Assembly (NCBI GenBank): GCA_041658425.1
Contig: JBBAAF010000003.1
Location: forward strand, 14,267 to 78,266
Reading direction: 5' to 3'
Origin: Bacteroidales bacterium
GTDB taxonomy: Bacteria; Bacteroidota; Bacteroidia; Bacteroidales; UBA12481
Length of the DNA stretch: 64,000 bases
Shown here: positions 22,135 through 57,976 of the stretch, in pieces
Layout of the letters: each line of letters begins with the position of its first letter
How positions within the stretch are numbered: the first letter of the stretch is position 1
Translations under genes and position numbers: made by a program
The notes under the pieces: generated by a model
Database searches by the model: none
What the model was told of the DNA's origin: nothing
The model's input: the letters and a program-made list of their open reading frames with translations, nothing else

Positions 22135-23679
22135 TTACCTGCCATACCAGAAGCAGGCCAAAGCATAATTCACAGGGCCTCCGTACATTTGCCATGATTC
22201 CATATCGAGTTTAAGAGAAGTTTTAAATGGTATGGCATCGAGGCTGCGAACCCGGGAGTTTACCGAATTGCCTCCAATCGTACCCATATTTGCATTTCCG
22301 ATCGGTTGACCAACAAAAATATTGCTAAAGGTTTCCGGATGACCCCAGGCGTACCCATAATAATCTTCGGAACCCGTGCCGAAATGATCAGGGAATTTGC
22401 TCCCATCAATGTAAACCTTTTCATCGCCTTCGCCCCACCAGCCCCGAAAGGTTTTAAAAGCCTGCAGAATATCCCCGGCATAAACTCCGGCCTGGTCTTT
22501 CAGATCAATATAGTTGAAGTCTTTAGTAATCTTTGCCGGCATCTCATCCAGCCTTTTGAAATTGGTATGGAAATACATCGACCGGTTGTTCCATTGCCAG
22601 TCACCAATAGCCACTTCAATGGACCCCGAAATGGGTTTATTTCCCTTGTTTTGCAAGCGAATGATCGCATTTTTCTGGTAAGGCATCACCCAAAAGCCCG
22701 CCATATTACCATCCATATCAATCTTCCGATACCAATCTTTTGCTGTAACTAACTGATCACCACATCCAAAGAAGAACCCAACTGGAACATCGATGGTTAT
22801 TATACCATCAAATTCGATCTGTAGCCATGTATTCTTCACCGCTTCATCCATATCTTCCGCCTTCAGCGAGATACGTAATCGTTTTATAGCCCCCTGTTCT
22901 TTAATGTCCAAGGTTTTCGAATCATTGGAGTTTAAAGAAAAGGTTGATTCTTTTGCCTTTCTCTCTCCTGGTACACGGGCGGATAACGGGGGTAAACCCA
23001 TAAATTCACTCAATTGTTTATTGGTATTCTTCAGGATTTCAGCGTATCGGGCCGGAGTCTCTTTTGAAAAGCTTTCCACTTCTGCCTTTCCATCATAAAG
23101 GCGGTAGTTGATATTGTACCAGAAACCGGTCCCGGCATCTCCCTTGGGTACATCACTCGTGATTTTTATTCGTTTGGCAAAAGGTATGGGGGCGTACAAA
23201 TTATGGCCGGGCTGCGCTCCTTTGTTGATATTCAGCGAATCCTGGTCGACCGATCGCTGTGAAAGAGGAATGCCTATGGATTTATTCTGACCGATCAGAG
23301 CTCCCGTGTGGTCAGCCTCCCAGAAAGGCGTATCCTGCCCATCGATATAAAAACGGAGGTTATTTTTCTGATTCGGATGGCCGCCGGTCCAGAACCGGGT
23401 AATCGCTCCGGGACCTTCAACATCCATCAGCACATATTCCTCCCTTCCCTGGTTGATCTCTTTTCGCACATAATTGCTCCAGTCTTCATTGGCAAACCAG
23501 CCTTCTTTGTCCTTTTCGGTTGATCTGCGGTCATAACTGCTGGCCTGTAAAAGGCGGAACTCCGGAGCAGGCCATTGGGCAATACCTGACCGGTCGGTCA
23601 ATTCCTGCAAAAGGGATTCAAACGTTATACCGCCTGTCGTCATTGCCATCGCAACAAGCACAATGAGAAATCTGTTCAT
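22135..23679 (-). CDS. DUF2961 protein, glycoside hydrolase family 172
   Basis: The motif series GPGAITRFW, YAPIPFAKRIKI, MYFHTNFKR, WWGEGDEKVYIDG and GTGSEDYYGYAWG matches the DUF2961 pattern. Confidence 0.8.
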   Translation of the reverse strand: MNRFLIVLVAMAMTTGGITFESLLQELTDRSGIAQWPAPEFRLLQASSYDRRSTEKDKEGWFANEDWSNYVRKEINQGREEYVLMDVEGPGAITRFWTGGHPNQKNNLRFYIDGQDTPFWEADHTGALIGQNKSIGIPLSQRSVDQDSLNINKGAQPGHNLYAPIPFAKRIKITSDVPKGDAGTGFWYNINYRLYDGKAEVESFSKETPARYAEILKNTNKQLSEFMGLPPLSARVPGERKAKESTFSLNSNDSKTLDIKEQGAIKRLRISLKAEDMDEAVKNTWLQIEFDGIITIDVPVGFFFGCGDQLVTAKDWYRKIDMDGNMAGFWVMPYQKNAIIRLQNKGNKPISGSIEVAIGDWQWNNRSMYFHTNFKRLDEMPAKITKDFNYIDLKDQAGVYAGDILQAFKTFRGWWGEGDEKVYIDGSKFPDHFGTGSEDYYGYAWGHPETFSNIFVGQPIGNANMGTIGGNSVNSRVRSLDAIPFKTSLKLDMESWQMYGGPVNYALACFWYGR

Positions 23680-25076: not shown

Positions 25077-28058
25077 TTATTCAATTACTAACCAGGTATA
25101 GCCACCGGCTTTCACCGTTACGGGCACAACCGCTTCATAATCATGATTTAAAGTATACTCACCCGACATTCCTTCCTGTTCCCTGATCCTGACTGAGTTG
25201 CGGATGCCGGTATAGTAAAGAGGAATTTTGAAATCCCTTTGAATATCTTGTTCTGTAGGATTAAAGATGATGAGCATACCCTTGTTTTTCAGCTGCGGAT
25301 TAACGTGAAATATCGCATCCAGATCCCTGCCGGTGGGACGGGAAATGTGTATAATATCAGAAGTCAAAATATCCCGGTATTTCTTGAACCAATCGATCCA
25401 CTTTTTCACCACTGCTTTTGTTGCCGGCGTATCGTACAACCGGTTGCCCCTGACTGAAAATTGGCAGCCGCTGGCCAGATACTGAAACAACCCGATCTCA
25501 TACCGGTCGATGTTTTCCGATAAAGGCTCCAGACCTATTCGTGGGTCATTACTGTAAAAACCGACCAGCTGTAAACCTATCCAACCCATGGAAGGCGCTT
25601 TGTGCCAGGTGCCATCATAAATGTATTGACGGCTCAGCAATAATTGTTGCTGCGGGGTCAGGTTGGCACTGGCCTCCCGGTACCCCATGCCGGTTGATGC
25701 CTGCCCGTTCAGGAAGTACCAGTCTGGCATCGGAGCGTACATGTTTCGTTGCTGCACCTCATGGATCACGCTAACCTGAAACTTCCATTGCTCCCATTGC
25801 GAATCGTAATAACCATTATGGTGCGGATGAATGGTTGAAGCGCAGGCATCACCGTGGTAAGGGCCATCAACGTTCAGCGACATCAATCCGGTTTTATCAA
25901 AGAATTGCCACATTTTCGGGTAATAAACATCCTGCCATTTACTGGCAATACAAACGCTTTGTCCAAAGAAGCTGCCGGGCTTTCCGGTTTTAACTTCTAT
26001 GCAATCATACTCGGCGCCTCTCCCTCTTGAGGCAACCTGAAGTTCGTAACCTCCTGTAATAATGTTCTTTGCTTTAGCATAACCTGCGATATCTTTCCAC
26101 AGGGTAATATTTTTATCACTTAAATCATCATGACTGATACCGGGCCAGGCCTGAATGTCTAATCTTTCAAAGCCCAATTCATACATCTGATCAATAAATG
26201 ATTTAAGTTTTTCAGGATCATGCGAAGTGATGCCACCTGTAATCAGTGATTCCGTTACCTGCGGTGCCAGTTTGCGGTAAAATTTGCGATGTCCCAATGT
26301 CTGACGTTCCCGGTCATCGTTATCAAACAACAACTCGAAGGTGCTGAATGATTCGAATAAAGAATCGGAAGAAACATGAGCCGACGGCCCGAAAAGCAAT
26401 GTGCTTTTCAGCAAGCATAAATGCGGGAATTTCAAATAATAATCCTCTGCCATATTGTGAGTAGCCCAGGTGGAATATTCAGGATCTGTTTCCCACTGGG
26501 TGGTTGTTTGACCAAAACGGGCCGGAGTTGGCGCCTCTCCTGCAGGATAGAGTGTATTACTGCTCGACTCAATAGCATTATTCACCATTGCGAAAGAATA
26601 ATCGCTTTCGATTTGCATTCGGCTTTTTTGATCCTGGGCCACAGCCAACACTTCACACTCCATTTTATTGACCACAATCTCTCTCCCGCTGCTATTCCTT
26701 AGAGTGATCCACTTGCGGATAGCGGGCAAACCTTCATACATTTCATAATGCACATCGACCAAAATTCCGGGGGCACTTACCGGGGGCTGATAGTGCATGA
26801 TCAAATGCAAACCCTTGGGCGGCCAATCTGTGTTTACGGCGTTGAATTTTACCTGCCAGGGGTATCGGGCCTTCGGCTGTTCCATATCCATCCCCGAAAA
26901 AAGAAATGATCCGGGGTTTGCAGTCAAATCTTTACACCAGCTTTCTAAAAAATAGGCTTTCTCGGGTTGCCCGGATAATCCACCGACATCATACCAAACG
27001 CTGTCCAACATTAATTTTGCTTCGGGTTTAACTGCACGGATATATTCTGAATCATTAGACAGATTTTTAAAACTGATACACGTGAGATTATCAGCAAGAT
27101 AAAAAGTGCGGCTCGCTAAACCATTTGTCAGCAATAATTTACAAGTTTCACCATTGTTTCCGGTTTGTAAAAACAATTGAACTTTTTGTCTCACCGGTGT
27201 AATCAGCCAATCTTCTTTTACGGCATCGGCCTTCAATTCGTTGACCGCAGTTATTCCGGATAATTTTGACAGAGTAGCAATTAATTGTATCTGTTTATCT
27301 GTAACCGCTTTACGTGCCTTAGTCAACTCCTCAACATTAAGCAATAAATTTTTACCGGGATTAAACTTTGCCGAACCGTAGTTGCTTAACCTGACTTCGT
27401 AAACCATCCCTTTGAAATAACCGTTTTTCCCGTTGAAGCCAACGGAAAAGTTGGGTGCAATCTCTTTTGCTAATTCAAATGGGTCTCTTTTCTCGCCGTT
27501 AATGTAAACGGTTCCCTGCCTGCCATCACTGATCAAAGCGATATGAATCCAATCGTTGGCAGAAACCTTGGCAATTGGTTTGGTCACCACCTTGCCATCA
27601 ATGACCAGGATCCAATCTTCCGCCCGCTGCGCAATGAGGTAACCCTTATTATTATCTCCAAAAGCTAAAGCGGTACTGTACCGGTTCGGGCGATCAGGAT
27701 CAGGATTAATGGAACTGGCATTGAGCCAGGTCTCCAAAATGAATTTTTCAGATGGGTGGCCTAATGTTTTGTTTAGGCTGTAACCTCCGGCATCTTTAAA
27801 CAGTATGGAACCTTCACCTTCTAATTTTTTATCAGCGGGAGCATCTGCAAAAAATTGGGGGCTCCCGCTTCTTGTCAGGTCATTCCCCTGTCCGCTCAGG
27901 TCTTTTAATACATCCGGAGCAGCCGCAAAAGTGACGGAACCTGCTTTCCCGGTATTAAAATATGCTTTGATGACTTGCTGCGATTGCGCGCCGGTATAAA
28001 TCAAGATAGCTGACAGGAAGGTAAAAACTGTTTTTAAAGTTGATGTATTTGCCTTCAT
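25077..28058 (-). CDS. Uncharacterised ~930-990 aa family, copy A (N-terminal LamG/concanavalin-like domain plus conserved core)
   Basis: Signal peptide present. A LamG-like N-terminal ~230 aa ends ...GYFKGMVYEVRLSNYG. The core is shared with copies B and C: VDVHYEMYEGLPAIRKWITL, NVDGPYHGDAC, HPHHNGYYDSQW, GMGYRE and AVVKKWIDWFKKYRDILTSDIIH. Confidence 0.85.
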   Translation of the reverse strand: MKANTSTLKTVFTFLSAILIYTGAQSQQVIKAYFNTGKAGSVTFAAAPDVLKDLSGQGNDLTRSGSPQFFADAPADKKLEGEGSILFKDAGGYSLNKTLGHPSEKFILETWLNASSINPDPDRPNRYSTALAFGDNNKGYLIAQRAEDWILVIDGKVVTKPIAKVSANDWIHIALISDGRQGTVYINGEKRDPFELAKEIAPNFSVGFNGKNGYFKGMVYEVRLSNYGSAKFNPGKNLLLNVEELTKARKAVTDKQIQLIATLSKLSGITAVNELKADAVKEDWLITPVRQKVQLFLQTGNNGETCKLLLTNGLASRTFYLADNLTCISFKNLSNDSEYIRAVKPEAKLMLDSVWYDVGGLSGQPEKAYFLESWCKDLTANPGSFLFSGMDMEQPKARYPWQVKFNAVNTDWPPKGLHLIMHYQPPVSAPGILVDVHYEMYEGLPAIRKWITLRNSSGREIVVNKMECEVLAVAQDQKSRMQIESDYSFAMVNNAIESSSNTLYPAGEAPTPARFGQTTTQWETDPEYSTWATHNMAEDYYLKFPHLCLLKSTLLFGPSAHVSSDSLFESFSTFELLFDNDDRERQTLGHRKFYRKLAPQVTESLITGGITSHDPEKLKSFIDQMYELGFERLDIQAWPGISHDDLSDKNITLWKDIAGYAKAKNIITGGYELQVASRGRGAEYDCIEVKTGKPGSFFGQSVCIASKWQDVYYPKMWQFFDKTGLMSLNVDGPYHGDACASTIHPHHNGYYDSQWEQWKFQVSVIHEVQQRNMYAPMPDWYFLNGQASTGMGYREASANLTPQQQLLLSRQYIYDGTWHKAPSMGWIGLQLVGFYSNDPRIGLEPLSENIDRYEIGLFQYLASGCQFSVRGNRLYDTPATKAVVKKWIDWFKKYRDILTSDIIHISRPTGRDLDAIFHVNPQLKNKGMLIIFNPTEQDIQRDFKIPLYYTGIRNSVRIREQEGMSGEYTLNHDYEAVVPVTVKAGGYTWLVIE

Positions 28059-28085
28059 AATTTCTGCTTTTTTGGATAAGTAAGT

Positions 28086-29345
28086 CTAGAAAAATTCACT
28101 GAAGGGACGATTTTCAACAATAGCAGTAAGTCCCATCATGGGAACTGCAATTGCTGCCAGAAAACCTACAGCACCTCCTCCGGTGCCATCTGCAGAAATG
28201 TATTCCCGGAATTCATATTTTACCAGATTGTCGACCAAATCTTGAGCAATTTCCAACGCGAACCCTGGATTCTGGCCGGCAATGGCAGGCAAAACCCAGC
28301 CGGTACCAACCGACCAGAAACCACCGTTCGTATAGCTGCCAACTGTTGAAGGGAAAAAGTGTCGTTGCCATCCGTCCGGTTCTGCAATCTGACGGGTAAA
28401 TCCATTCAGAAAAATCGCTTTTCGATTCCGGTAATAATATTCTGCAATGGTCTTTTGAACATCTGGTTTAACCAGCCAGTAGGCGAGTCCATTGGCCCAA
28501 ACATTTATTTGACGGCAATCTTTGGAGCCGGCGAAAAAGGCTCCCTGTTCCTTATCGAATAGCCGGTAGAGATTATTTAATATCCCTTCCGACAAACGGG
28601 TCCACCTATTTATCTCTGATTCCTCAATATGGCCCTTAAATAAACGCGCAGCCCGCTTTAGCCCAAAATGAAGAACCAGAGAGCTCATCAATTCAAATCC
28701 CGTAATTGCTTCCGGGTCATGAAACCCAAAGCCAACCCTGGGGCTTTGAGGATCGACATAGGCCAATCCGCAGGAGAATGGCACAATATCAATGCTGCGT
28801 TTAAAAACCCTGGCCCAGTCATCCTTTCTGGGAATCGTTGCACCCATTTTTTCGAGATTATCCAGGAGCCGAACCCAGGCAGCAGGCAGGTGAAGCGGCA
28901 TAACCCGTGCATGTGGCCGTGATAGGCCGCCCGGTTGCATAACAGGCATTCCATCAGCTTCTACCCGATCCGGGAAACATTCCAGGTCAACGATGCTGTT
29001 TGTCAGGAACCCGGCAATCTGAGTGAGCTTTTCACTATCGTAAAAACCCGGTTGCACAAGCAAGGGGTATAGAAAATCATCCGGCCATATCCCGCGATAG
29101 GTTTCACTGATACAGGGGGAATGCAATAAAAGATCAGTATCAAATACCACCTTCGACCGTTCAAATGATTCAACCAATTGCTTCCTCAGGATCTCCAGTA
29201 AAGCAACAAATTGCTTTTTTTCATCTGCGTAGCCGGCAAGCAAGTCAATTGGTGACAGGGTATATAGGGCTCCTGCCGCACCTGAAACGGTTAAAAAGGT
29301 TCGTCTATCCATTCCCCTTTTCGATAATTCGTCAGCATTTTTCAT
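28086..29345 (-). CDS. TAT-exported hypothetical protein (helical, possibly alpha/alpha-barrel-like)
   Basis: Twin-arginine motif GMDRRTFLTVSGAAG. 419 aa with no recognisable family. It sits between copies A and B of the uncharacterised family. Confidence 0.75.
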   Translation of the reverse strand: MKNADELSKRGMDRRTFLTVSGAAGALYTLSPIDLLAGYADEKKQFVALLEILRKQLVESFERSKVVFDTDLLLHSPCISETYRGIWPDDFLYPLLVQPGFYDSEKLTQIAGFLTNSIVDLECFPDRVEADGMPVMQPGGLSRPHARVMPLHLPAAWVRLLDNLEKMGATIPRKDDWARVFKRSIDIVPFSCGLAYVDPQSPRVGFGFHDPEAITGFELMSSLVLHFGLKRAARLFKGHIEESEINRWTRLSEGILNNLYRLFDKEQGAFFAGSKDCRQINVWANGLAYWLVKPDVQKTIAEYYYRNRKAIFLNGFTRQIAEPDGWQRHFFPSTVGSYTNGGFWSVGTGWVLPAIAGQNPGFALEIAQDLVDNLVKYEFREYISADGTGGGAVGFLAAIAVPMMGLTAIVENRPFSEFF

Positions 29346-29384
29346 TGTTATAAATTTAAATACTTAGGCAAATCTCCTTGTCGA

Positions 29385-32180
29385 TTATTTCAGGATATAA
29401 TACTGATAGCCTTTTGCCGGGATAGTTACCGTTAAGATAATTTCATAATCCCGATTGATGGAATATGTTTTTGCCTGTCCCTCCTGTTGGGCAACCTGTA
29501 CTTTATCGCTTAGTCCGGTATAATAAACCGGGATTTTTAATTCACGGGTAATCGGTTCTTCGAGTGGATTGTAGAGCATCAACAATCCATTTTCAGTTCC
29601 CGATGGGTTTACGTGGAGAAGCCCGTCCCAATCCCTTCCGTCCGCTCTGCGCAGGTGAATAATATCAGAATCAAGTATTTGCCGGTGTTTTTTGTAGAAA
29701 CTGACCCATTTTTTTACAACTGCTTTTGTTGAATCCGTGTCGTAAAGTCTGGGTCCGCGGTAACATGCCTGCACTCCGGCGCCGAATAAATTTGCCAAAC
29801 GCTGGCCATAATGCTCCAGATGCTCATTCAGCGGCTCGATCGTAGCAGCTGCGCCACCTCCCTGATATTCCGTCAGCGGAACAAACATCCATCCCATGCT
29901 GGGCGTTTTGGTCCAGGTGCCGTCATAAATGTTTTGCCTTTCGATGATCTCCTGCTGAGCCCGTGGCAGCGACCAGTTCACTTCACGGTAGCCCATTGCA
30001 CACTTGGATGAACCATTCAGGTAATACCAGTCCGGAACATTCAGGTAAATCCTCTCCGAACGGCACCACTGATAAAATTCGGCTATCGTACGGAACTGGC
30101 TCCATTGTGAATCTTCCAGTCCTTTATGGCCGGGATGTACGGTTGAACCGCAAATATCGCCGGGATAGGAGCCATCATGTTCAATGATATCGAGACCGGT
30201 GGCTTCATACATCTCTTTGATCTTCCGGAAATAATTGATACCCCATTCGCTTCCCAGGCATGGAGAGTTTCCATAGTAGGCTATACCTCCGGGCTTTCCG
30301 GTTGCAGGATTTATAATATCGTCTTTAGTACCAACCGAGCGGCTGGCCAACAAAGAATATCCTCCTAAGGCAATCCCTTTACTATGCGCATAATCAGCCA
30401 GTTCCTTTATTTTCCGGTAATATGCTGTATCTCCGCTTTCCATCGTAAATCCGCTGCCAAAAGTCATGATCACCATCTCGAAACCTACTTCGGCACATTG
30501 ATCGACTGCAAGTTTAACTGCATCCGGGTTGGCACTGCGAACATGCATGAGCACCGGGTTTTCGGTTACCCAGGGAGCTATCGTCCGGTACATCTTCCGG
30601 GCAGTCAGCCCTTTTCGTTCCTTGTCAGATGAATCGAAATACAATTCCCATGCGCGAAAGGTTTCAAAATCCTGTCCGGGCTTAATCTCCCATTCCGGTC
30701 CGATAGGCGGACGGACCTCCAATAAACAAGGGGTTTTCAGTGCGTAGTTTACCTGCGAGGTGTAAGTCGAATCGGTCATCCAGTGAACGGCAGCATTGTT
30801 TGCTTTCCGGTTACTCATCGACGAGAAGGCATAATCGGTCTCCACATGCATATTCGGCAATTGCCAGTCTGTTTCGCCTTCCACACTCGATTCACCCTCA
30901 ACGGCAGCCAGAATTTCACTGACGAAACGGTTAAGTACAAAGCTCTTTCCGGAATGATTATGAACCGTGATCCATTTGCTGATCAAGGGTAACCCGTCAT
31001 ATATTTCATAATGAACCTTCACCACAAGTCCTTTCACCATGGAAGGCTCAGCCTGGTTAAGTTTAGGCTTGCCCAAGAAGGAAAAATATTTAATATGGCA
31101 GCGTTCGATATTTCCGGGATTTCGGGAATCAGAATTATTCCCGCCACGATCCATTTTACCGATTCTCACTGATAAAGGTACTTCAGCGCAATAGATTTTT
31201 GTCAGCTCGCTCCAGGTTTTCCCATCTTCGGATACTTCACAAAGAATATTATTGCTGAAAAATTTCATTCTCAAATGATAGGATTGACCATCTGTCAGCT
31301 TGCCAAATTCCTGTTCACGGTTGCCATCCCATATTCCAAAACAGCCTTTTCCGGGTTTCAGGTTGAATTTTATTATTTTATCACTGAAAACCAATGCCAC
31401 GCCCGGTCCCCAGGTGGAACTTTTATCGGTTCCGGGGCTAACAAAGCACTCCACTCCGGTTGCATCTTCCGGAAAAACACGTTCAGCATAAACTGAAGCA
31501 TTTTCATTGGCCATGATTTCTCCGGGTTTGCCTTCATTGATAAATGAGTTTCGCTCATTTGCCGGACTGGCATAAATTTTCCAGACAGGGTCCATCTTTA
31601 CGAAATTATCGGAATAGAGAATTTCCCGCGGTGCCTCCTTTACTTTAAATTCAGGTGCTTTAAACTCAACAATCAGTTCTTTACCGGAGGCCGGCCATTT
31701 GGGATCGCCGGAAATCCAATCCTTACGGATTTTCCAGTCGAAACGCGGTTTAAGATTTTCAACGGTGTACCTGACAAACTGAAACGATTCATCGTCATTC
31801 GTAAGCTTGTCGATCCATTGCTTGAGCAAATAGTTCTGGACAGGTTGCCCCGAAAGCCCTCCAATATTGAACTTCTGACCGTTAACGGTTATTTCTGCCT
31901 CCGGACGTACTGATCTTAGATAATTCTGTCCCGAAACGAGATTTTCAATGCCTGTGGTAGCAAAATTTGGGGTAATCCGAAAGCTTCGTACAATTAGACC
32001 GTTCGTTATCACCAAATCTTTCCCGTCTGATGACGGAACTATTTTAGAGATGTATTTCTCCCCGTTGATGAGCCAGTCATTTTGCTGACTGGTACTTTCT
32101 TTCTGACTAATGCATTCACTGGTAAATGCATTGATAATCAGAAGGAGAAACAAAACTGATAATTTATGATTCATTTTCAA
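29385..32180 (-). CDS. Uncharacterised ~930-990 aa family, copy B (internal ~215-aa jelly-roll-like insert)
   Basis: Signal peptide present. It shares long identical runs with copy C, for example GGGAAATIEPLNEHLEHY and RLANLFGAGVQACYRGPRLYDTDSTKAVVKKWV. Motifs EHDGSYPGDIC and HPGHKGLEDSQW are present. Confidence 0.85.
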   Translation of the reverse strand: MKMNHKLSVLFLLLIINAFTSECISQKESTSQQNDWLINGEKYISKIVPSSDGKDLVITNGLIVRSFRITPNFATTGIENLVSGQNYLRSVRPEAEITVNGQKFNIGGLSGQPVQNYLLKQWIDKLTNDDESFQFVRYTVENLKPRFDWKIRKDWISGDPKWPASGKELIVEFKAPEFKVKEAPREILYSDNFVKMDPVWKIYASPANERNSFINEGKPGEIMANENASVYAERVFPEDATGVECFVSPGTDKSSTWGPGVALVFSDKIIKFNLKPGKGCFGIWDGNREQEFGKLTDGQSYHLRMKFFSNNILCEVSEDGKTWSELTKIYCAEVPLSVRIGKMDRGGNNSDSRNPGNIERCHIKYFSFLGKPKLNQAEPSMVKGLVVKVHYEIYDGLPLISKWITVHNHSGKSFVLNRFVSEILAAVEGESSVEGETDWQLPNMHVETDYAFSSMSNRKANNAAVHWMTDSTYTSQVNYALKTPCLLEVRPPIGPEWEIKPGQDFETFRAWELYFDSSDKERKGLTARKMYRTIAPWVTENPVLMHVRSANPDAVKLAVDQCAEVGFEMVIMTFGSGFTMESGDTAYYRKIKELADYAHSKGIALGGYSLLASRSVGTKDDIINPATGKPGGIAYYGNSPCLGSEWGINYFRKIKEMYEATGLDIIEHDGSYPGDICGSTVHPGHKGLEDSQWSQFRTIAEFYQWCRSERIYLNVPDWYYLNGSSKCAMGYREVNWSLPRAQQEIIERQNIYDGTWTKTPSMGWMFVPLTEYQGGGAAATIEPLNEHLEHYGQRLANLFGAGVQACYRGPRLYDTDSTKAVVKKWVSFYKKHRQILDSDIIHLRRADGRDWDGLLHVNPSGTENGLLMLYNPLEEPITRELKIPVYYTGLSDKVQVAQQEGQAKTYSINRDYEIILTVTIPAKGYQYYILK

Positions 32181-34224: not shown

Positions 34225-35811
34225 TTAATTGGTCAACAGCTCATTCAGCCGTTGACCAGCTTCGGCTTCGGAAAGTACACCTTTTTCGGATAAAAGTCTG
34301 ACCGCCAGTTTCGATACTTCAGCAGGGTTCCTGATGTTACATGAGCACCAGTCGCGCAATTGAGTAACCTGTGAACTGTGGACATAACTCCAGCCGAATG
34401 GTTCCTCACCACTGCCATTGTTCACGTAACGATGAACCTTCCACCAATTTACCAGAGAGGTAATCCCGGCGGTCACACCCTCAGCAGCCTGTTTGTCGGA
34501 GACCGCGGGTTTTGAAATAGCATGGAGTAACCCGATACGGCTTTCGGTTTGTTGTGCCAGGATTTCAAGGTACCGCTCCGGCCCGCCAGGGATAAAAGTC
34601 GCCGGCTCAGCGGTCAGCTTGGCAATACGCAGGCGCCGGGGGAGGTCAGAGGGCAGCGCATCAAGACCGCGTTGAAAGCAATCCCATGCAGGTACCAGCA
34701 ATTCCGAAGGTCCTCCGAGAAAGACGGCAAAGTCCTTCAGGATTTGTTCGTCTGTTTTATTCAGATAAGAAAGATCGATTGATCCGCGGGAGAAAAAATA
34801 GATATTCGGCAAAACCATAATGGGTTGTTGGGCATTGCCGAAAACACCCTTGGCCGACCCGGCGTATTTTGATTCTTCCTTAAGTATGCGACGTATGTGG
34901 TCGAACTGCAGGAAGGCAGCCGGTGGAGTTGGTTCGAACTCGATAGCCTCGTAACAAAAAATCGTCGAACGATTCATCAGACCCAGCGAGTCGGCCAGTT
35001 CGATGTTGACACGACCGTTGGCCCAGTTGTCGCGATTCGATCTCCCGGGAAGCATTTCCCATGGTTCCGGCATTGCGGTTTTTAACAGCTCCATGGAAGC
35101 TTTCGTGTATGTCTCTATCAGGGATGGCGGATTGTTGGGGTTGCCGCCCCACACGCTTTTTATACCCCAGCTGCACCATATCCACGGAATGAGGCGCTGC
35201 CCCGATGGATTGGTTCCGTGGCGATCGAGCGCAGCGCGGTCGGACAAGAAAACTTTTAACCAGTCTTCGGGCTTGGCTCCCTCGTATCCCCCCGGATCAC
35301 CATCGATGGTTACGTAGGCATCTGCATTATTCAAAATGGCCATCATAGCGGTGCGATGTGCCAGGTAAGGCCCGGCTTGTGCAGGATCATCCAGACGCAC
35401 ATTCCTCCATACCGGGTAAGGATTTCGCTGCTGCCAGGGCTTCGCTGTAATCGACGGATCCGGTGTGAGGTTGGGGCACTGCATGATCCAACACTCCAGC
35501 GGAGTGGAATGCGCATCTTCGATCGTGAGGCGGAACTCTTTCAGCGCCAGTGAATCAACCTTGCTCAGCGGCATGGGAATAGCCTCCAGCATGGGCCAGA
35601 TACCTACCTGATCGTATCCCATCCTGCGAAGCAAGTGGAACATGTTGGAGAAATCCTCCCGCTGCCAGGTGCGAACCGAAAACGGGTAATTGAAGAACCA
35701 GCCTTCGTGCAGATAAAACCCGCGGTGCCTGAATGCGGGCTCTTCAGCACCAACAGATACGGATAGCAACACGAATAAGACAAAAAAAATCGTATGTTTC
35801 AAAAACTTCAT
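34225..35811 (-). CDS. Secreted hypothetical protein, family not recognised
   Basis: Signal peptide MKFLKHTIFFVLFVLLSVSVGA. 528-aa intact ORF beginning FRHRGFYLHEGWFFNYPF (barrel-like feel only). The gene is GC-rich. Confidence 0.7.
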   Translation of the reverse strand: MKFLKHTIFFVLFVLLSVSVGAEEPAFRHRGFYLHEGWFFNYPFSVRTWQREDFSNMFHLLRRMGYDQVGIWPMLEAIPMPLSKVDSLALKEFRLTIEDAHSTPLECWIMQCPNLTPDPSITAKPWQQRNPYPVWRNVRLDDPAQAGPYLAHRTAMMAILNNADAYVTIDGDPGGYEGAKPEDWLKVFLSDRAALDRHGTNPSGQRLIPWIWCSWGIKSVWGGNPNNPPSLIETYTKASMELLKTAMPEPWEMLPGRSNRDNWANGRVNIELADSLGLMNRSTIFCYEAIEFEPTPPAAFLQFDHIRRILKEESKYAGSAKGVFGNAQQPIMVLPNIYFFSRGSIDLSYLNKTDEQILKDFAVFLGGPSELLVPAWDCFQRGLDALPSDLPRRLRIAKLTAEPATFIPGGPERYLEILAQQTESRIGLLHAISKPAVSDKQAAEGVTAGITSLVNWWKVHRYVNNGSGEEPFGWSYVHSSQVTQLRDWCSCNIRNPAEVSKLAVRLLSEKGVLSEAEAGQRLNELLTN

Positions 35812-35832: not shown

Positions 35833-38286
35833 TTACTTAGCTGCGGGGGCTTTCACCGGTTCACCGTTACCAATGGATTTCATCTCGATTTTAATATTTG
35901 ATGGACCTTCACCGTTGAATACCGCATCGAAAATGATTTTGTTGCTGCCTTTCACCAAATTGGGTAATTTTTCCTTCAGGTCAATGACTTTCAATACTTT
36001 CCAGTTTCTGTCATATACCTGTAGCTTTCCTGTTTCATCTAATTTCAGATTTTGGAACGATTCCAGATTAACCGGTATTTCTATCTTGTTGTGGTTATTC
36101 ACTTCAAGAGAAATTGTTTCCACTGTTGATACACTGGCTTTATCAACCGGAAGCAGGGTCAGTATGAACCTCATCGGCTGATCATTATAGGGATTTTCGA
36201 ATTCGAAGGAACTGAAAACAGGTTCTCCGGGTTGCCTGACTTTTTGCTCATGAACAAAGCGTTTAACCTGATAAGGATAAAGGGTCCATTCTCCCGTTCC
36301 TGCTGATTCGAGGTGATATTCGTTGCTGATATCTTCCATCCTCAGTTTTTGTTCAGGGGTAAAGGCTCCTGCCATTCTTGCTGTTTCCCAGGTATTCATG
36401 GCTTTAAAAATGGCTTCGCTTTGTCCGTTTCTTTCTACATTTCTGTAGCTCAGATTGAAAGCAAAGCCCGCATCAAAGCCGGCAGCCCGTGCAAGCAGCC
36501 ATTCGGTATCTTCAACGCTGGTTTCGCCCGACATGCTAAACCACCCTAACATGGATGGTAAAAAATTGCGACGGTAAAAATCCTGGTTCATCAGCCGGTA
36601 GTTGGTCTGGCTTTCGCGAAATCCGGCATACCAGGGTTCACCCCAGTTATAGCGGGTATTGATGTGCCAGTTGAAATGCGATGGATTACTGGCATCGTTG
36701 ATTACCTTTCCCTGCAGTTCGGGTTTCAGATTATCGTACCACGTTTTGGTAAACAAACTCCTGGCATACTGTCCCATACCGGTCGACCATACTCCCTCTA
36801 ATCCGTCGAATGAGACTTGCATGAGTCCTGTTTCATTGAAAAGCCTGGCGATATTTTTAGCAATTTCCTCGGACAAGCTGGCATCGCTTAAAAAAACCTT
36901 ATAACCATGATCCATTAACTTCCCGATGACATCGCCCTTTTGATGAGCCGAGGTTTTCGTGTTAAATGCACCGCGAATGCACCCCGTTAGTTTCCAGGGC
37001 TCGCTCGCTGATACTTCTTTGTAGCGAATAATCTCATCACCGATTACTACGGAACTGAGCGTATTGTTTTTCATTTGATTGAAAAATTGGGGGGAGCTTA
37101 TGGAAACCTCATCCGATTTTTCATCAATGTCGGCGGTAATAGTACCTTCTCCCACTTTTGCCAACCGTTTATCCGGCACGGGCGTTACATAAGCATCGTT
37201 GGTGGTGATAAAGTTCGTCAGGGTGTGAGCACCCAGTTTTATGCCCTGTTCATTGGCCCTGTCGACATATTTTTTCATACTGGTCCAATTCTCCGGATAC
37301 GACCTTTCATTTAAAACAAAGTGTCCCCAGGTTGTAAACGGACCACCATCGTACAGATATTTCAATCCGGCTTTTTTAGTCAGTTCCAGTGCCTGGTCGA
37401 GGTTATCTTCATTGAACCCGATGATAAGATAGGAGGCTGTTGCCGAACGGGCTGTTTTTGCCCATTCACCATCAATTGTAGGATGGGGAAGTCCTTCCTC
37501 AAGTTCAATCTGTCCGATAATTTCCAGGACCTTTTCGGCAGGGCAACCAAAAAGTGCAATTTTTGAGCCGATAACCCCCCCGTCATTAAAAGCAGGAGCA
37601 ACGTAGAATTCATGAGCCCAATTGGCAATAATACGCTCCTTGTTCCTGTTTCTGCAATAGGCCTGGAGAACGCTGCCAAAATCCTGAACCCTGGCGGTTT
37701 GCCCCCGGTATGCTTTCTTATTTTTCCACTCGGCACCTACATCGACAATACTACCCGATGAAAAAATATCATAAGAGGGCTCAATATCGTTCTCTTCGCT
37801 GGGATAACCTCCCATGGTTTTTACAGTAAGCGACTGAATACCGATGGCAAACTCTTTGTTTCGAACCACTCCGACACATTCACCGATTGTTTCGTGTATG
37901 GTTGTAGGGTAGGGGCCCCAAATCACCAGTTCAATGATTTCCGGCTTGGATATTCCGGTGAGTTCAAAGGAGATGTATCCGGATTTAGTGATGGCTTTTA
38001 CCTGTACCTCCACTTTATTGGCGGTAAAAGAAAGTGTCAGAATGTTATTCTTCTGTTTGAGCAGGGAGGGGTGTTCAATGACGTTGTTCACACGAATACT
38101 TATTAGCGGAGCAATCTGAGCTCCGGAAAGATATTCCGTATTCTTCAGCTTGTCGAAAATGCTGACGATGTTACCGTTTTCATCAATATCCAATTTGAAA
38201 TCAGCCGTTTCATACGTAATATTTCTGGCATAAAGATTCAGTATCATAATAAAGCCAGTAATAAAAAGCAGTGTAAATTTTTTCAT
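35833..38286 (-). CDS. Secreted hypothetical protein, family not recognised
   Basis: Signal peptide MKKFTLLFITGFIMILNLYA. 817-aa intact ORF, tightly packed with its neighbours. Confidence 0.7.
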   Translation of the reverse strand: MKKFTLLFITGFIMILNLYARNITYETADFKLDIDENGNIVSIFDKLKNTEYLSGAQIAPLISIRVNNVIEHPSLLKQKNNILTLSFTANKVEVQVKAITKSGYISFELTGISKPEIIELVIWGPYPTTIHETIGECVGVVRNKEFAIGIQSLTVKTMGGYPSEENDIEPSYDIFSSGSIVDVGAEWKNKKAYRGQTARVQDFGSVLQAYCRNRNKERIIANWAHEFYVAPAFNDGGVIGSKIALFGCPAEKVLEIIGQIELEEGLPHPTIDGEWAKTARSATASYLIIGFNEDNLDQALELTKKAGLKYLYDGGPFTTWGHFVLNERSYPENWTSMKKYVDRANEQGIKLGAHTLTNFITTNDAYVTPVPDKRLAKVGEGTITADIDEKSDEVSISSPQFFNQMKNNTLSSVVIGDEIIRYKEVSASEPWKLTGCIRGAFNTKTSAHQKGDVIGKLMDHGYKVFLSDASLSEEIAKNIARLFNETGLMQVSFDGLEGVWSTGMGQYARSLFTKTWYDNLKPELQGKVINDASNPSHFNWHINTRYNWGEPWYAGFRESQTNYRLMNQDFYRRNFLPSMLGWFSMSGETSVEDTEWLLARAAGFDAGFAFNLSYRNVERNGQSEAIFKAMNTWETARMAGAFTPEQKLRMEDISNEYHLESAGTGEWTLYPYQVKRFVHEQKVRQPGEPVFSSFEFENPYNDQPMRFILTLLPVDKASVSTVETISLEVNNHNKIEIPVNLESFQNLKLDETGKLQVYDRNWKVLKVIDLKEKLPNLVKGSNKIIFDAVFNGEGPSNIKIEMKSIGNGEPVKAPAAK

Positions 38287-39388: not shown

Positions 39389-39407
39389 AACTATAATTTT
39401 GTTTGGA

Positions 39408-47127: not shown

Positions 47128-48438
47128 TTAATATTCTTTTACCCGTTTCCCGACTTTGTGGCCCAGAGCGGCATAGTATAAAATAAAAAGGTAACAAGGG
47201 ATAACAATGATATAGGCCTGTTGCGGATTAACAATGTCGGCCAGGCGACCGTAGAGAAGCGGCAACAGTGCCCCGCCCAAATTACCCATAATAAGCAGAG
47301 AGGATCCGATGCGTGTAAACCGGCCTAGTCCCTCTAAAGCTAAAGGCCATACGGATGGCCATATCAATGCATTGGCCATTCCAAGTAACGCAATGAACAC
47401 CACCGATGCTAATTTTGGCAGTCCAATTGCTGCAATAGTCAGGACAATTCCAAGGATCGCACATATTTTAAGTGCTTTCCCCTGAGAAATGTATTTAGGG
47501 ATGGCAACGATCCCGATCGAATAACCCAAAATCGAAGCCAGCATAGTCAGAGAGGTAAAATGTTTTGCAATGGAAATTGGAATTCCCTGACTAAGTCCAT
47601 AGCTTATGATCGTGTCGCCTGCGATAATCTCCAGTCCCACATCACAAAAGATAGCCACCACCCCCAGCAGCAGGAATGGATATTGAAAAATACTGGTTCT
47701 GGATGTGTGTCCTGTTTTATCGTCTCCGGCATTTTGCACATTGGGATCGATCTCCGGCAATCCCGAAACTTTCACCAGTACTCCTATTAATGCCAGAATC
47801 GCTGCCATTGCAAGATAAGGAACGATTATCCTGGAAGCCAGCTCGTCCAATGCTACGGCTTTTTGCATCACATCCATTGAATTAAGCTTGGCAAGCAGGG
47901 CGTCACCATCTTTAAGCGCCATTACTCCAAAAAGATAGGTGGCAATCACGCCGGCCGACTTATTGCATATTCCCATGATGCTTATTCTTTGGGCAGCGCT
48001 TTCAATAGGTCCTAAAATGGTAATGTAGGGATTGGCAGCGGTTTGCAATATCGCCAGTCCTGTTCCCATGATGAAGAGCCCTGAAAGGAAAAAGAAATAA
48101 GTCCTTGTGATGGCAGCAGGAATAAATAAAAGGGCTCCGGCTGCCATTACGAACAAGCCCATCATCATTCCCTGCTTTAATCCGGTCCTTTTCAGAATCC
48201 AGGAGGAGGGAATGGCCATTAACACATAAGCAATATAAAACGAAAATGCAACGAGATAGGATTCGAAATGGTTAAGTTCACAGGAAATTTTCAGATAGGG
48301 TATCAGTATTCCGTTTAACCAGGTAATAAATCCGAATATGAAAAAAAATACCCCAATGGTTCCGATCGTTATCCAGGTTGCCTGTGTGCCTCTTTTATCT
48401 GTTCTTTTCATAATAATACTTAGTAAATGACATACCAA
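47128..48438 (-). CDS. MFS sugar permease, FHS family (fucose / glucose-galactose transporter type, TC 2.A.1.7)
   Basis: FGFITWLNGILIPYLK...YLVAFSFYIAYVLMAIPSSWILKRTGLKQGMMMGL matches the FucP/GluP N-terminal signature, and the protein has about 12 hydrophobic segments. The likely start is MKRTDK at about 48411. Confidence 0.85.
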   Translation of the reverse strand: MVCHLLSIIMKRTDKRGTQATWITIGTIGVFFFIFGFITWLNGILIPYLKISCELNHFESYLVAFSFYIAYVLMAIPSSWILKRTGLKQGMMMGLFVMAAGALLFIPAAITRTYFFFLSGLFIMGTGLAILQTAANPYITILGPIESAAQRISIMGICNKSAGVIATYLFGVMALKDGDALLAKLNSMDVMQKAVALDELASRIIVPYLAMAAILALIGVLVKVSGLPEIDPNVQNAGDDKTGHTSRTSIFQYPFLLLGVVAIFCDVGLEIIAGDTIISYGLSQGIPISIAKHFTSLTMLASILGYSIGIVAIPKYISQGKALKICAILGIVLTIAAIGLPKLASVVFIALLGMANALIWPSVWPLALEGLGRFTRIGSSLLIMGNLGGALLPLLYGRLADIVNPQQAYIIVIPCYLFILYYAALGHKVGKRVKEY

Positions 48439-51212
48439 TTATACCCCCTGGAAGGTAAGGTTATGTGGAGCGTTATTTTATAATCCCGGCTGATTGTATA
48501 CTTCCGGGTTTTTCCATCGGGCTCACGCACATTTGCAGTATTGCTCAGCCCGGTATAATATACCGGAATCTGCAGAGTTCTGGTGATTTCTTGATTCAAA
48601 GGATTATAGAGCATTAACAATCCCTTTTCTTTACCTGAAGGATTCACATGCAAAAATCCGTCCCAGTCGCGGCCATCAGGGCGACGCAAATGAATAATGT
48701 CGGAATCGAGGATTTGACGATGTTCTTTATAAAAATCAACCCATTTTTTCACAACTGCTTTAGTTGAATCAGTATCGTACAACCGGGGACCGCGATAACA
48801 AGCCTGCACGCCGGCACCAAAAAGGTTGGCCAATCGCTGGTTGTAATGTTCCAGGTGTTCGTTCAACGGTTCAATAGTAGCTGCAGCGCCGCCCCCGTGA
48901 TATTGCGTCAGCGGTACAAACATCCATCCCATACTTGGAGTTTTGTCCCAGGTTCCTTCATAAATATTCTGGCGCTCGATAATCTCCTGCTGTACACGGG
49001 GAAGCGACCAGTTCACTTCCCGGTATCCCATGCCACATTTGGAAGATCCATTCAGATAATAGACATCCGGAACGTTTAAATAGATTCCTTTTGAACGGCA
49101 CCACTTATAAAAATCAGTGATGGTTTTGCGCTGGTTCCATTGCGAATCGCTAAGACCTTTGTGCCCGGGGTGTGTAGTTGAAGCGCACACGTCGCCGGGA
49201 TAGGAACCGTCGTGCTCGATTATGTCAAGCCCTGAAGATTCGTATAATTCATATATTTTACGGAAGTACTCCTGTCCCCACTCGCTGCCCAGACAGGGTG
49301 AATTTTCAAAAACAGCGAATCCCCCTGGTTTGCCTGTCTTCGGGTTAATAACATCATCCTTCTCACTGATTGAACGGCTGGCTAAAAGGCTGTATCCACC
49401 CAGGGCGATTCCTTTTGAATGGGCATAATCGGCATATTTTTTCATTTTTTGATAATAGGCCGGGTTACCGCTTTCCATATTAAACCCGCTGCCAAATGTC
49501 ATAATCACCATTTCAAATCCAACTTCGGCACATTGGTCAATGGCCAGTTTTACCGATGCCGAATCCGCTCTCAATACATGCATAAGTATCGGATTTTCAG
49601 TAACCCAGGGTGCTATGGTCCGGTACATCCTTCGCAGTGACAAGGATTTTCTCTCCCTTTCATAACTGTCGTAAAATAACTCCCAGGTATGGAATGATTC
49701 AAAACTTTTTCCGGTTTCGATCATCTGTTCCGGCCCCAATGGAGTTTGGACCTCAAGCAAGCAGGGCGTTGCAAGTTCCCAGCTGATCTGTGATGTATAG
49801 ATCGAATCCGGAACCCAGCTAACCACTTTTTCATAATCCGTTCTTCCACGGATAGCTGAGCCGTAATCCGTTTCTACATGAATATTCGGTTTCTCCCAGC
49901 CTGATTGTTCATCTTCCTCCGATTTCCCTTCCACCGCTGCAATGATTTCACTGGTATAACCGTTCAAAGTTACACTTTTACCTATCTGATTATCAATAGT
50001 TATCCACTTACTCATTAATGGGATTCCATCATAAATTTCATAATGCACCCTAACTTTAAGGCCTTTTAAATCGGATGGTTCAGCTTTTGAAAGGTCGGGT
50101 TCCCCAAATATTATAAAGTTCCGGACATGAGATCGTGTTAAATCTCCCTTCTTATTACCATCCCTCGCGTTCCCCGAACGACCCATTTTACCGATTCTGA
50201 CAAATTGCGGCTTTTCATTGACCGTAATCCTGCTAATCTCCTCCCATTTTTTTGAATCGGAAGAGATCTCACAAATAATCATGTTTCCGGCAACTGTCAT
50301 TTTTAAATAGTATGCTTTGCCATCTTCAGCTTTACCATAGCTGAATTCCTGTCCTAATGCCCCATTAAAAATTCCGAATTTTCCTTCTCCGGGACGAATG
50401 TTAAACTTGATCGTAAATGTTTGAAATACAAGTGCTATGCCGGGACCAAAGGTCACACCTTTGTCTGTGCCTGGATCAAAAAGGCATTGGACAACCTGGG
50501 CATCCGGTGGAAAGTCGCGTTCTGCAAAGCAAAAACTATTGGGAAGGGCCATTATTTCCCCGATCTTACCCTCATTGGTGAAGGATATACGTTCGTTTGC
50601 ACTGCTTTTCTGAATGCGCCAACCGGTATCCAGCTTCGTAAAATTATCCGAAAGCAATTCTTTCCGGGGAACTTCCAAAACATTATAATCAGGGGCTTTA
50701 AAATCGAGGATCAATTCAACTCCCTTCGGAGGCCAGGGCAAATCTTCAGGCATCCATTCCAACCGCTTTTTCCAGGGAAACCGCGGCTGAATATTGTTTA
50801 CGGAGTACCCGGTATATTCGAATGAGTTGGGCTCACTTTTAAGATCGTCGAGCCATTCGGGCAATAAGTAGCTATGAACAGGTTGCCCGGTTAACCCGCC
50901 AATAGTAAACTTGTGTCCGTCAACAATTATTTTTGCCTCAGGCCGCACAGACCTTAGATATTCCTGTGATGTGACAAAGTTTTTAATGCTGATGGTTGCC
51001 AGATTTGGTGCAATCCTGAACCGCCTTTCTATTAAACCGTTGGATAGTAGCAGTTCCTTTCCGTCTTTCGATTTTCCAGCTTTGGCAATGTAGTCTTTGC
51101 CGTTAATGAGCCAGTCATTTCTTTGTACATTATTTTCCGGCTTACATCTGCATAAACCAAACAGGGTAATACAGATTACCGCAAAAACGAAAGTCAATTT
51201 TCTTGAGTTCAT
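48420..51212 (-). CDS. Uncharacterised ~930-990 aa family, copy C (close paralogue of copy B)
   Basis: Collinear with copy B along its whole length, including the internal insert. The C-terminal third is nearly identical, for example ILDSDIIHLRR, EHDGSYPGDVC and HPGHKGLSDSQW. Confidence 0.85.
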   Translation of the reverse strand: MNSRKLTFVFAVICITLFGLCRCKPENNVQRNDWLINGKDYIAKAGKSKDGKELLLSNGLIERRFRIAPNLATISIKNFVTSQEYLRSVRPEAKIIVDGHKFTIGGLTGQPVHSYLLPEWLDDLKSEPNSFEYTGYSVNNIQPRFPWKKRLEWMPEDLPWPPKGVELILDFKAPDYNVLEVPRKELLSDNFTKLDTGWRIQKSSANERISFTNEGKIGEIMALPNSFCFAERDFPPDAQVVQCLFDPGTDKGVTFGPGIALVFQTFTIKFNIRPGEGKFGIFNGALGQEFSYGKAEDGKAYYLKMTVAGNMIICEISSDSKKWEEISRITVNEKPQFVRIGKMGRSGNARDGNKKGDLTRSHVRNFIIFGEPDLSKAEPSDLKGLKVRVHYEIYDGIPLMSKWITIDNQIGKSVTLNGYTSEIIAAVEGKSEEDEQSGWEKPNIHVETDYGSAIRGRTDYEKVVSWVPDSIYTSQISWELATPCLLEVQTPLGPEQMIETGKSFESFHTWELFYDSYERERKSLSLRRMYRTIAPWVTENPILMHVLRADSASVKLAIDQCAEVGFEMVIMTFGSGFNMESGNPAYYQKMKKYADYAHSKGIALGGYSLLASRSISEKDDVINPKTGKPGGFAVFENSPCLGSEWGQEYFRKIYELYESSGLDIIEHDGSYPGDVCASTTHPGHKGLSDSQWNQRKTITDFYKWCRSKGIYLNVPDVYYLNGSSKCGMGYREVNWSLPRVQQEIIERQNIYEGTWDKTPSMGWMFVPLTQYHGGGAAATIEPLNEHLEHYNQRLANLFGAGVQACYRGPRLYDTDSTKAVVKKWVDFYKEHRQILDSDIIHLRRPDGRDWDGFLHVNPSGKEKGLLMLYNPLNQEITRTLQIPVYYTGLSNTANVREPDGKTRKYTISRDYKITLHITLPSRGYNWYVIY

Positions 51213-57956: not shown

Positions 57957-57976
57957 ATTGAAACCTATTGAAACCT
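57957..57976. repeat. Perfect tandem duplication of the 10-mer ATTGAAACCT
   Basis: Read directly at 57957-57966 and 57967-57976. It overlaps the stop codon of the GH78 remnant (minus strand ...AGG TTT CAA TAG GTT TCA ATC TAA). Confidence 0.9.

Follow-up and report, generated by a model that had tools for sequence, protein, structure and literature searches.

What do the two large, related proteins encoded almost side by side in this part of a Bacteroidales genome do, and to which enzyme family do they belong? The window analysed here is a stretch of 64,000 nucleotides (nt) from Bacteroidales bacterium (assembly GCA_041658425.1, contig JBBAAF010000003.1, positions 14,267 to 78,266), and the genes in question, copies A and B, are separated in it by the gene of a protein with a putative twin-arginine translocation (TAT) signal. 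The original prediction had described A and B, of 993 and 931 amino acids (aa), as two divergent copies of an unnamed enzyme-like family flanking a TAT protein of 419 aa. All three open reading frames (ORFs) lie exactly where it had placed them, and both copies are real; it had overlooked a third paralogue, copy C, in the same window. We consider it likely that A, B and C belong to a large, unclassified family of glycoside hydrolases (GH) that is remotely derived from the GH36/GH27/GH31 superfamily (clan GH-D), and the three proteins are probably secreted and periplasmic. The four genes are as follows.

25077..28058, minus strand: copy A, 993 aa, with signal peptide, N-terminal LamG domain and GH36-fold core; exact public match P0001.
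28086..29345, minus strand: TAT-signal protein, 419 aa, the ORF between copies A and B.
29385..32180, minus strand: copy B, 931 aa from a TTG start, with signal peptide, GH36-fold core and jelly-roll insert.
48420..51212, minus strand: copy C, 930 aa, B-type with the insert; P0150 of the same public contig.

In the public annotation of the contig, copy B (P0121) starts two codons later at an ATG and has 929 aa. Judged from their sequences, A and B are paralogues with a similarity far beyond chance: BLASTP gave 38% identity over 580 aa (E 1e-138) and a further 29% in an N-terminal block of 158 aa. When all ORFs of the window were compared with one another, C aligned with B at 64% identity over 929 aa, a range that takes in the insert, and with A at 38%.

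At the sequence level the family has no name, as had been claimed. The core of A and B found no match in Pfam, in NCBIfam or, by phmmer, in the PDB; only LamG and sub-threshold GH36N and GH97 were returned. We therefore turn to the fold. An AlphaFold2 (AF2) model of copy B was made from a 63-sequence alignment spanning the A-type and B-type subfamilies (A1), and had a mean pLDDT of 90.1 and a pTM of 0.86. In this model an N-terminal beta-sandwich (residues about 40-176 and 380-515, split by the insert) is joined by a long linker helix (520-539) to a barrel and a second sandwich.

29673..30551, minus strand: (beta/alpha)8 barrel of copy B, residues 544-836, from DSSP of the model and hhalign to the GH36 barrel; bears the conserved motifs.
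29388..29666, minus strand: C-terminal eight-stranded beta-sandwich of copy B, residues 839-931, from DSSP; contains the DIIH842...R845...D852...H856 part of the tail.

The model bears the three-domain architecture of GH36 (beta-sandwich, barrel, C-terminal sandwich), and the trait of clan GH-D (GH27/GH31/GH36), a (beta/alpha)8 barrel of common descent whose strand beta4 bears the nucleophile Asp, is matched as well. When copy B was searched against the PDB with Foldseek, the top 20 matches were all GH36 alpha-galactosidases (E 5e-21 to 3e-17, 10-13% identity), and after them came GH101, GH27, GH31 and GH13 (E 1e-12 to 1e-8). The GH36/GH31-type layout that had been read into the tail is thus right at the level of the fold, and in the alignment the KKW...SDIIH...HV tail covers the last barrel helix and the first strands of the GH36 C-terminal beta-sandwich. 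The family profile matched the GH36 structure 2xn0 with an E value of 0.02. In hhalign comparisons with a reference alignment of five genuine GH36 enzymes from plasmid records (A3), the A1 profile gave E 5.7e-4, and a more diverse profile of 88 sequences gave E 6.2e-5 at a probability of 64.6%, with 516 collinear columns reaching from the N-domain to the C-terminal sandwich. Pfam GH36N, which stays below threshold in A and B, is above it in the divergent member P0534 (30.4 vs 27 bits) and is precomputed for several homologues.

The residues of the GH36 active site were then located with 2xn0 and the AgaA mutant entries D478A/D548N as the reference for numbering. We take AgaA D478 and D548 (D482 and D552 of 2xn0) to be the nucleophile and the acid/base, respectively, consistent with the titles of those mutant entries. 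Both hhalign runs placed D669 of copy B on D482 (of KWD), Y608 on W415, R748 on R559, and DIIH...HV where the GH36 C-terminal domain begins. The remaining hallmarks of GH36 are missing. W340/E341 fall in a gap of the family alignment. Of the D370/D371 pair (DDGW after beta2), D370 falls on T573 and D371-G-W is gapped, the family consensus here being MTFGSGF. K480, the Lys of K-x-D, corresponds to E667 in B and to Asn in A, with the Asp itself kept. For the acid/base segment W549-x-S-D552 on beta6, both runs gave a 7-residue gap in the family.

Could the three copies nevertheless be ordinary GH36 alpha-galactosidases that are too divergent for the Pfam Melibiase model? The fold matches, which are best to GH36 alpha-galactosidases throughout, the aligned nucleophile Asp, and the name 'Alpha-galactosidase' assigned automatically to some homologues in UniRef and NCBI would all fit such a reading. 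We consider it quite unlikely. Melibiase (PF02065) gave no match in A or B at E<=0.1, in C at E<=0.01 or in seven divergent members at E<=0.001, and the galactose-recognition and catalytic residues (W340/E341, D370/D371, K480, W549-S-D552) are substituted or gapped, whereas a separate protein of the window (13727-16168) does bear IDDQW, FKMDG and WWNDPD. The same Asp pair and Lys recur outside GH36. GH_New2 is an alpha-D-galactosidase family of clan GH-D, remote from GH36 and GH27, described in May 2026 (bioRxiv 10.64898/2026.05.19.726164), and GH27, GH36 and GH_New2 have in common two Asp and one Lys for O4/O6 and two stacking Trp (10.64898/2026.05.19.726164). The present family has neither the Asp pair nor the Lys. 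Its fold and remote homology place it in the GH36 superfamily, but at the level of single residues it does not qualify as GH36. To the question whether the core hits a characterised CAZy family, posed in the original prediction, the answer is therefore divided: the fold matches GH36 strongly but the defining residues are lacking, so that A, B and C fall in a known superfamily, yet in no known family.

Conservation was counted in the 150 best mutually diverse representatives of the family. All motifs quoted in the original prediction are present in A and B and are mostly kept across these representatives, so that this part of it stands; D675 (the second Asp of DG.Y.GD), R732 and Q692/W693, which it had included, vary in the wider homologues and, like E782, are far less conserved than the rest. 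In copy B numbering, the conserved positions are D669 (137/141), Y672 (129/139), D690 (127/136), S691 (130/136), P716 (128/132), D717 (117/131), G723 (130/130), Y731 (128/130), R748 (127/128), W764 (119/127) and R808 (112/117), and in the tail H842 (106/111), D852 (110/111) and H856 (99/111). At E733, 123 of 130 representatives have Glu and a further 5 have Asp, and this residue is aligned beside R536/D538 of GH36. The codons of the predicted active-site carboxylates are given below.

30174..30176, minus strand: codon of D669, copy B (IEHDG), predicted nucleophile, last residue of barrel strand beta4 (665-669).
29982..29984, minus strand: codon of E733, copy B (GYRE), second conserved predicted active-site carboxylate.
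25866-25868, minus strand: codon of D731, predicted nucleophile of copy A.
25674-25676, minus strand: codon of E795, the GYRE Glu of copy A.
49209-49211, minus strand: codon of D668, predicted nucleophile of copy C.

Since D669 stands at the end of beta4, the position of the clan GH-D nucleophile, we propose a retaining mechanism with D669 as the nucleophile. It would attack the anomeric carbon in a double displacement, as elsewhere in the clan, and the sugar would be axially linked (alpha-D- or beta-L-type). E733, the only other near-invariant carboxylate aligned to the GH36 active-site region, may be the partner carboxylate, either as the acid/base or as the equivalent of the clan's pKa-modulating Asp. 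In GH13 and GH101 the acid/base is a Glu on another strand than the GH36 Asp, which is a precedent for E733. The deletion of the GH36 acid/base loop (WxSD) suggests that proton donation is relocated or non-canonical, as in GH_New2, where the Asp acid/base of GH27/36 type is absent and Asn492/Thr472 are used (10.64898/2026.05.19.726164). Without the two Asp and the Lys for galactose O4/O6, the family probably does not bind galactose in the GH27/GH36 manner, and the automatic 'alpha-galactosidase' names are unsupported.

The family has a further conserved element, with no counterpart in the aligned GH36 enzymes.

30126..30260, minus strand: Cys2His2 set of copy B, C641, C677, H682 and H685, in the beta3-alpha3 and beta4-alpha4 loops.

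Its residues are conserved at C641 in 125/139, C677 in 128/138, H682 in 107/136 and H685 in 123/137 representatives. It was conceivable that the His, Cys and Asp motifs form a catalytic metal centre, either isomerase-like, in line with the xylose-isomerase-like metal-dependent barrel offered earlier as an alternative, or metal-assisted in a glycosidase as in GH97 or GH38. The strong conservation of the four residues, in loops after beta3 and beta4 beside the predicted nucleophile, and that of H842, D852 and H856 would favour this idea. However, in one subclade (P0432, P0438, P0439, P0445 and two partial sequences) C641, C677, H682 and H685 are jointly replaced (by A/S, D, P and Q), while every conserved Asp and Glu is retained, including D669, D690, D717, E733 and D814. 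The joint replacement indicates that the four form one dispensable unit, which fits a structural module and argues against a catalytic centre. Moreover, H842 aligns with the invariant R643 of GH36, and since R643 and D661 of GH36 lie on the same first strands, a structural role of the tail residues is suggested. Neither a xylose-isomerase-like nor an AP-endonuclease-2 match was obtained with Pfam, and neither fold was among the 50 best Foldseek matches listed; the xylose-isomerase proposal thus falls away, and a catalytic metal centre of any kind appears very unlikely. The pattern of replacement in the sequences suggests instead that the Cys2His2 set is probably structural, a zinc site or a disulfide plus a His pair, and would not be the catalytic centre.

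The two accessory modules of the family are different from each other.

27381..27737, minus strand: LamG / ConA-like accessory domain of copy A, residues 108-226, Pfam PF13385, E 2.2e-7, 31.5 bits against a cutoff of 27.6.
31047..31652, minus strand: insert of copy B, residues 177-378, 202 aa, all-beta, splitting the N-terminal beta-sandwich.

The LamG domain reported for the N-terminus of copy A is therefore above the Pfam threshold, and it is present in nearly all A-type homologues. The junction described between the copies is likewise correct, being contiguous in A and interrupted in B, and the insert is jelly-roll-like as had been said, with a length of 202 aa and not ~215. At this site B-type homologues have an insert of 201-218 aa. 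In A-type homologues it measures 2-12 aa, a range shared by most of those with a bare core, one of which has 40 aa. In the AF2 model the insert of B is all-beta with a pLDDT of 92-97. Its recurrent near-threshold Pfam matches are GH43_C2 (best E 1.2e-4) and DUF1349, both ConA-like jelly rolls, and GH43 beta-xylosidase fold matches of the copy B model by Foldseek agree with the GH43_C2 reading. We read the insert as a ConA-like jelly roll related in type to GH43_C2 and DUF1349. We rejected the possibility that it is a relocated copy of the LamG of A: hhalign gave a probability of 0.7%, that is, no detectable sequence homology. The two modules thus look independently acquired, and the 'domain shuffling' of the original prediction is ordinary modularity of carbohydrate-active enzymes.

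Three architectures were found in the family, namely LamG plus core (~990 aa), core with an insert of 201-218 aa (~930 aa) and bare core (~730 aa); with the insert disregarded, some of the bare-core proteins share 70-87% identity with B. More remote members reach 3,121 aa and are multidomain proteins anchored at the surface, with SLH, FIVAR, Big, fn3, F5/8-C and C-terminal LamG domains. The LamG of A and the ConA-like module of B and C probably shape or extend substrate binding, and would give the three paralogues differing specificities on one complex glycan that contains fucose and may be sulfated or bear furanosides. Fusions were also observed. P0020 of Rapidithrix thailandica (1,220 aa) joins an A-type family member to a GDSL/SGNH esterase, and two genes of another locus (L092; 1,238 and 1,239 aa) encode GH123-like plus GDSL, and RhaT, GH29 and GH172 in one polypeptide. 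As read from their domain composition, the fusions point tentatively to acylated substrates and to a functional link between these components of the locus.

How large is the family, and which genes accompany it? A profile search of 1.84 billion representatives gave 2,044 clusters (50% identity) at E<=1e-3 and 455 at E<=1e-30, and a scan of one genome per species found members in at least 588 species. They belong to the Bacteroidota, Verrucomicrobiota, Planctomycetota, Lentisphaerota, Armatimonadota and Spirochaetota, and include abundant gut proteins of Parabacteroides and Muribaculaceae. Database entries label them 'LamG domain-containing' or 'hypothetical', and nothing about function could be learned from the names that cluster members have in public databases, except for the automatic 'Alpha-galactosidase' label. 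A paper on the D. gadei D-arabinan polysaccharide-utilisation locus (PUL) does not name such a protein, and several proteins of its PUL42 'lacked annotation'.

We sampled the neighbourhoods of 80 other family loci (+-10 kb, de novo clustering of ORFs). The neighbours comprised SusC (16), SusD (16), sulfatases (15), extracytoplasmic function (ECF) sigma factors (11), anti-sigma factors (11), GH172 (10), GH29 (8), GFO/IDH (6) and GH2 (5). Two family copies within +-10 kb occurred in only about 4 of the 80 loci, so that clustering of paralogues as a norm of the family was rejected. The sole recurrent immediate neighbour was GH172, directly adjacent and on the same strand in all 10 loci that have one; this amounts to 10 of 83 family genes, in Bacteroidota and Planctomycetota, with GH172 on both sides in two loci. 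In a close relative (L091) GH172 adjoins copy A itself, and in the window it is close by.

22135..23679, minus strand: GH172 (DUF2961) gene, two genes downstream of copy A; Pfam PF11175, E 4e-52.

The recurrent adjacency suggests that both enzymes have one oligosaccharide as their common substrate. The GH172 enzymes of known activity are either exo-alpha-D-arabinofuranosidases or difructose-dianhydride synthases/hydrolases (PMC10115798), and taken together with the adjacency these activities suggest a shared furanoside-bearing, fucosylated, possibly sulfated glycan.

Several points weigh against the assignment of A, B and C to a glycosidase family of clan GH-D, or against parts of it. Identity to GH36 is only 10-16%, which makes the local alignment around the acid/base region uncertain. 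With the GH36-type acid/base absent, the second catalytic residue is only a candidate, and the proximity of D669, E733, D690, D717 and the Cys/His set is inferred from the strand topology of the model. We found no biochemically characterised member in the literature, adjacency to GH172 concerns only 12% of the family genes, and the periplasmic location is based on N-terminal hydrophobic segments as read by eye. Having weighed these, we still hold the glycosidase assignment likely. A bolder form of it, to which we give somewhat less than an even chance, is that the family founds a new CAZy family of clan GH-D with a sugar specificity new to the clan, in which the Asp nucleophile is kept, E733 or another residue replaces the deleted acid/base loop and the Cys2His2 set lies beside the active site. 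The coupling to GH172, fucosidases and sulfatases offers an example of a substrate for such a family, namely an alpha-linked residue in a glycan from microbes or algae that contains fucose or furanosides.

The TAT protein between A and B bears DRRTFL at residues 13-18, with DRRTFLTVSGAAGALY present, and RRxFL is the consensus of 57 homologues; its score against Pfam TAT_signal (16.4 bits, cutoff 22.7) is sub-threshold. No Pfam or NCBIfam family model matched the protein. Its AF2 model (pLDDT 91.5) is an (alpha/alpha)6 barrel, for which Foldseek returned GH100 invertases at the top (E 2e-9, TM 0.65), followed by GH63, GH116 and a rhamnosidase, and there is a weak profile match to the alpha-L-rhamnosidase 4xhc. 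D89, D90, D126, D210 and E381 are invariant among the homologues, together with many Trp and Tyr. From the model, the protein is most likely another unclassified glycosidase. It shares with the GH100/GH63/GH116/GH78-like enzymes (clan GH-G-like) the barrel and the acidic and aromatic conservation expected of a sugar pocket, and differs from them in its identity of 12-16%, the putative twin-arginine signal and the linkage to GH123-like genes.

That A, the TAT protein and B form a functional unit was not borne out, as the TAT protein was found in none of the 80 other family loci (+-10 kb). An obligate partnership with the family was rejected on the same count (0/80), and in L001-L003 the TAT gene is not adjacent to the family gene. 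In the close relative the order is B, TAT, GH123-like, A, and a GH123-like gene is adjacent or near in four of five TAT contexts. Elsewhere the TAT gene repeatedly adjoins a gene of the GH123_N family of ~1,000 aa (L001, L002, L091, L092). In the window, the TAT gene (28086-29345) and the GH123-like gene (5793-8813) are ~19 kb apart, which, compared with their adjacency in L091, implies a local rearrangement.

Nearly the whole window is one minus-strand SusC/SusD PUL of ~55 kb with ~30 other glycosidase-like genes.

54497-57592, minus strand: SusC, which opens the locus.
52710-54491, minus strand: SusD, after SusC.

Next come a GH29-like gene and, just downstream of it, copy C, then a major facilitator superfamily (MFS) transporter, GH151-like, GH38-like, GH109 and a URO-D-like gene (uroporphyrinogen decarboxylase / methyltransferase-fold). 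These are followed by two proteins without Pfam match, DUF4838, copy B, the TAT protein, copy A, GH29, GH172 and an SGNH-like gene, and after these come two more such proteins, a divergent melibiase-like gene, DUF6807, an esterase, a GFO/IDH oxidoreductase, GH123-like, GHL6 and GH20. The carbohydrate-active set (three GH29, GH151-like, GH20, GH123-like, GH109, GH38-like, GH172 and DUF4838) lies on a single strand with short gaps. Around copies A and B and the TAT protein the intergenic gaps are 7-39 nt, consistent with co-transcription. A phage, plasmid or mobile-element origin was ruled out, the family gene being chromosomal PUL content in hundreds of genomes.

The divergent melibiase-like gene (13727-16168, minus strand, 813 aa) matches Melibiase only below threshold, yet its IDDQW, FKMDG, RIGPD and WWNDPD motifs are clear. 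By these motifs its product is a separate divergent clan GH-D alpha-galactosidase-like enzyme of the same PUL, and it has no significant similarity to copies A, B or C beyond the signal peptide. Four minus-strand genes, at 34225-35811, 35833-38286, 18755-21337 and 16202-18685 (528, 817, 860 and 827 aa, respectively), have no Pfam or NCBIfam family. The pair of 817 and 528 aa is syntenic in L091, which makes these four proteins further candidates for unclassified CAZymes.

Directly downstream of GH109 lies the URO-D-like gene, in the window (38309-39523 and 39408-40718, minus strand) as well as in L091 and L092, a pairing that is conserved but odd within a glycan locus. The URO-D-like ORF of 404 aa overlaps GH109 by 116 nt and its homologues have 359 aa, so that its true start is probably later. 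Two short minus-strand ORFs could be gene remnants or have mis-called starts: 8941-9669 (242 aa) has only partial GH2-type Ig/mannosidase Ig domains, and 57965-58900 (311 aa) is the C-terminal half of a GH78 rhamnosidase six-hairpin domain. Measured in 2-kb windows, most of the PUL has a G+C content of 42-53%; for the first 10 kb and the stretch at 62-64 kb the values are 37-41%.

We regard the family as a solid, testable target for enzyme discovery, and not as a new kind of biology or system. An assigned activity would annotate thousands of genes and fill a gap in the degradation pathway of very large PULs. It would also show how a GH36 scaffold has been re-tooled, with the canonical acid/base and galactose-binding residues lost and a Cys/His module gained. 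The three paralogues of this locus, with their two accessory modules, are a natural experiment in the diversification of specificity.

The nearest known system is GH36 (LaMel36A 2xn0, AgaA/AgaB 4fnq-4fnu, SpAga 6phu), whose members are alpha-galactosidases and alpha-N-acetylgalactosaminidases. The family shares with GH36 the three domains, the best fold match and the nucleophile Asp at the end of beta4, as well as the aligned beta3 aromatic residue (Y608/W415), R748/R559 and the start of the C-terminal domain. It is without the DD pair, the Lys of KxD, the WE of beta1 and the WxSD acid/base loop, and adds the Cys2His2 motif, a longer beta3-alpha3 loop and ConA-like modules, either as an N-terminal LamG or as an insert in the N-terminal sandwich. 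GH27, GH31, GH101 and GH13 share with it the (beta/alpha)8 barrel and the nucleophile Asp on beta4 as secondary fold matches; these matches are weaker than those to GH36 and no signature motifs are common to both sides. GH27, moreover, is without the N-terminal sandwich (10.64898/2026.05.19.726164).

The last system to be compared is GH_New2, since A, B and C might simply be members of this already characterised family. Four GH_New2 members are named (B2K_10610, ZOBELLIA_334, Bovatus_03161 and STSP1_01769), the founding member being of 80 kDa, and the enzymes consist of an N-terminal sandwich of ~281 aa, an extended linker helix, a TIM barrel and an eight-stranded C-terminal sandwich of 91 aa (10.64898/2026.05.19.726164). 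The tripartite architecture with linker helix, the occurrence in PULs, the remoteness from GH36/GH27 and the missing Asp acid/base are all matched by our family; the mass of 80 kDa is near the size of a bare core (~730 aa), and the source taxa overlap (Flavobacteriia, Bacteroides, Sedimentisphaerales). The architecture, however, is common to GH36 as well and does not discriminate. GH_New2 keeps a highly conserved D345/D346 pair, K435 two residues before the nucleophile D437, and the two Trp (10.64898/2026.05.19.726164), whereas the conserved columns of the A/B/C family, compared with the published residue list, hold no counterpart of D345/D346 or K435. The loops differ too: GH_New2 has a beta2-alpha2 loop of 40 residues (346-386) and ~32 residues from W403 to K435 (10.64898/2026.05.19.726164), and the copy B model has a beta2-alpha2 loop of 12 residues and 59 residues between beta3 and beta4, which bear the Cys/His motif, a motif not mentioned in the preprint. 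We consider membership in GH_New2 unlikely. The family of copies A, B and C, set apart from GH36 by its residues and from GH_New2 by published description only, appears to be distinct from both.

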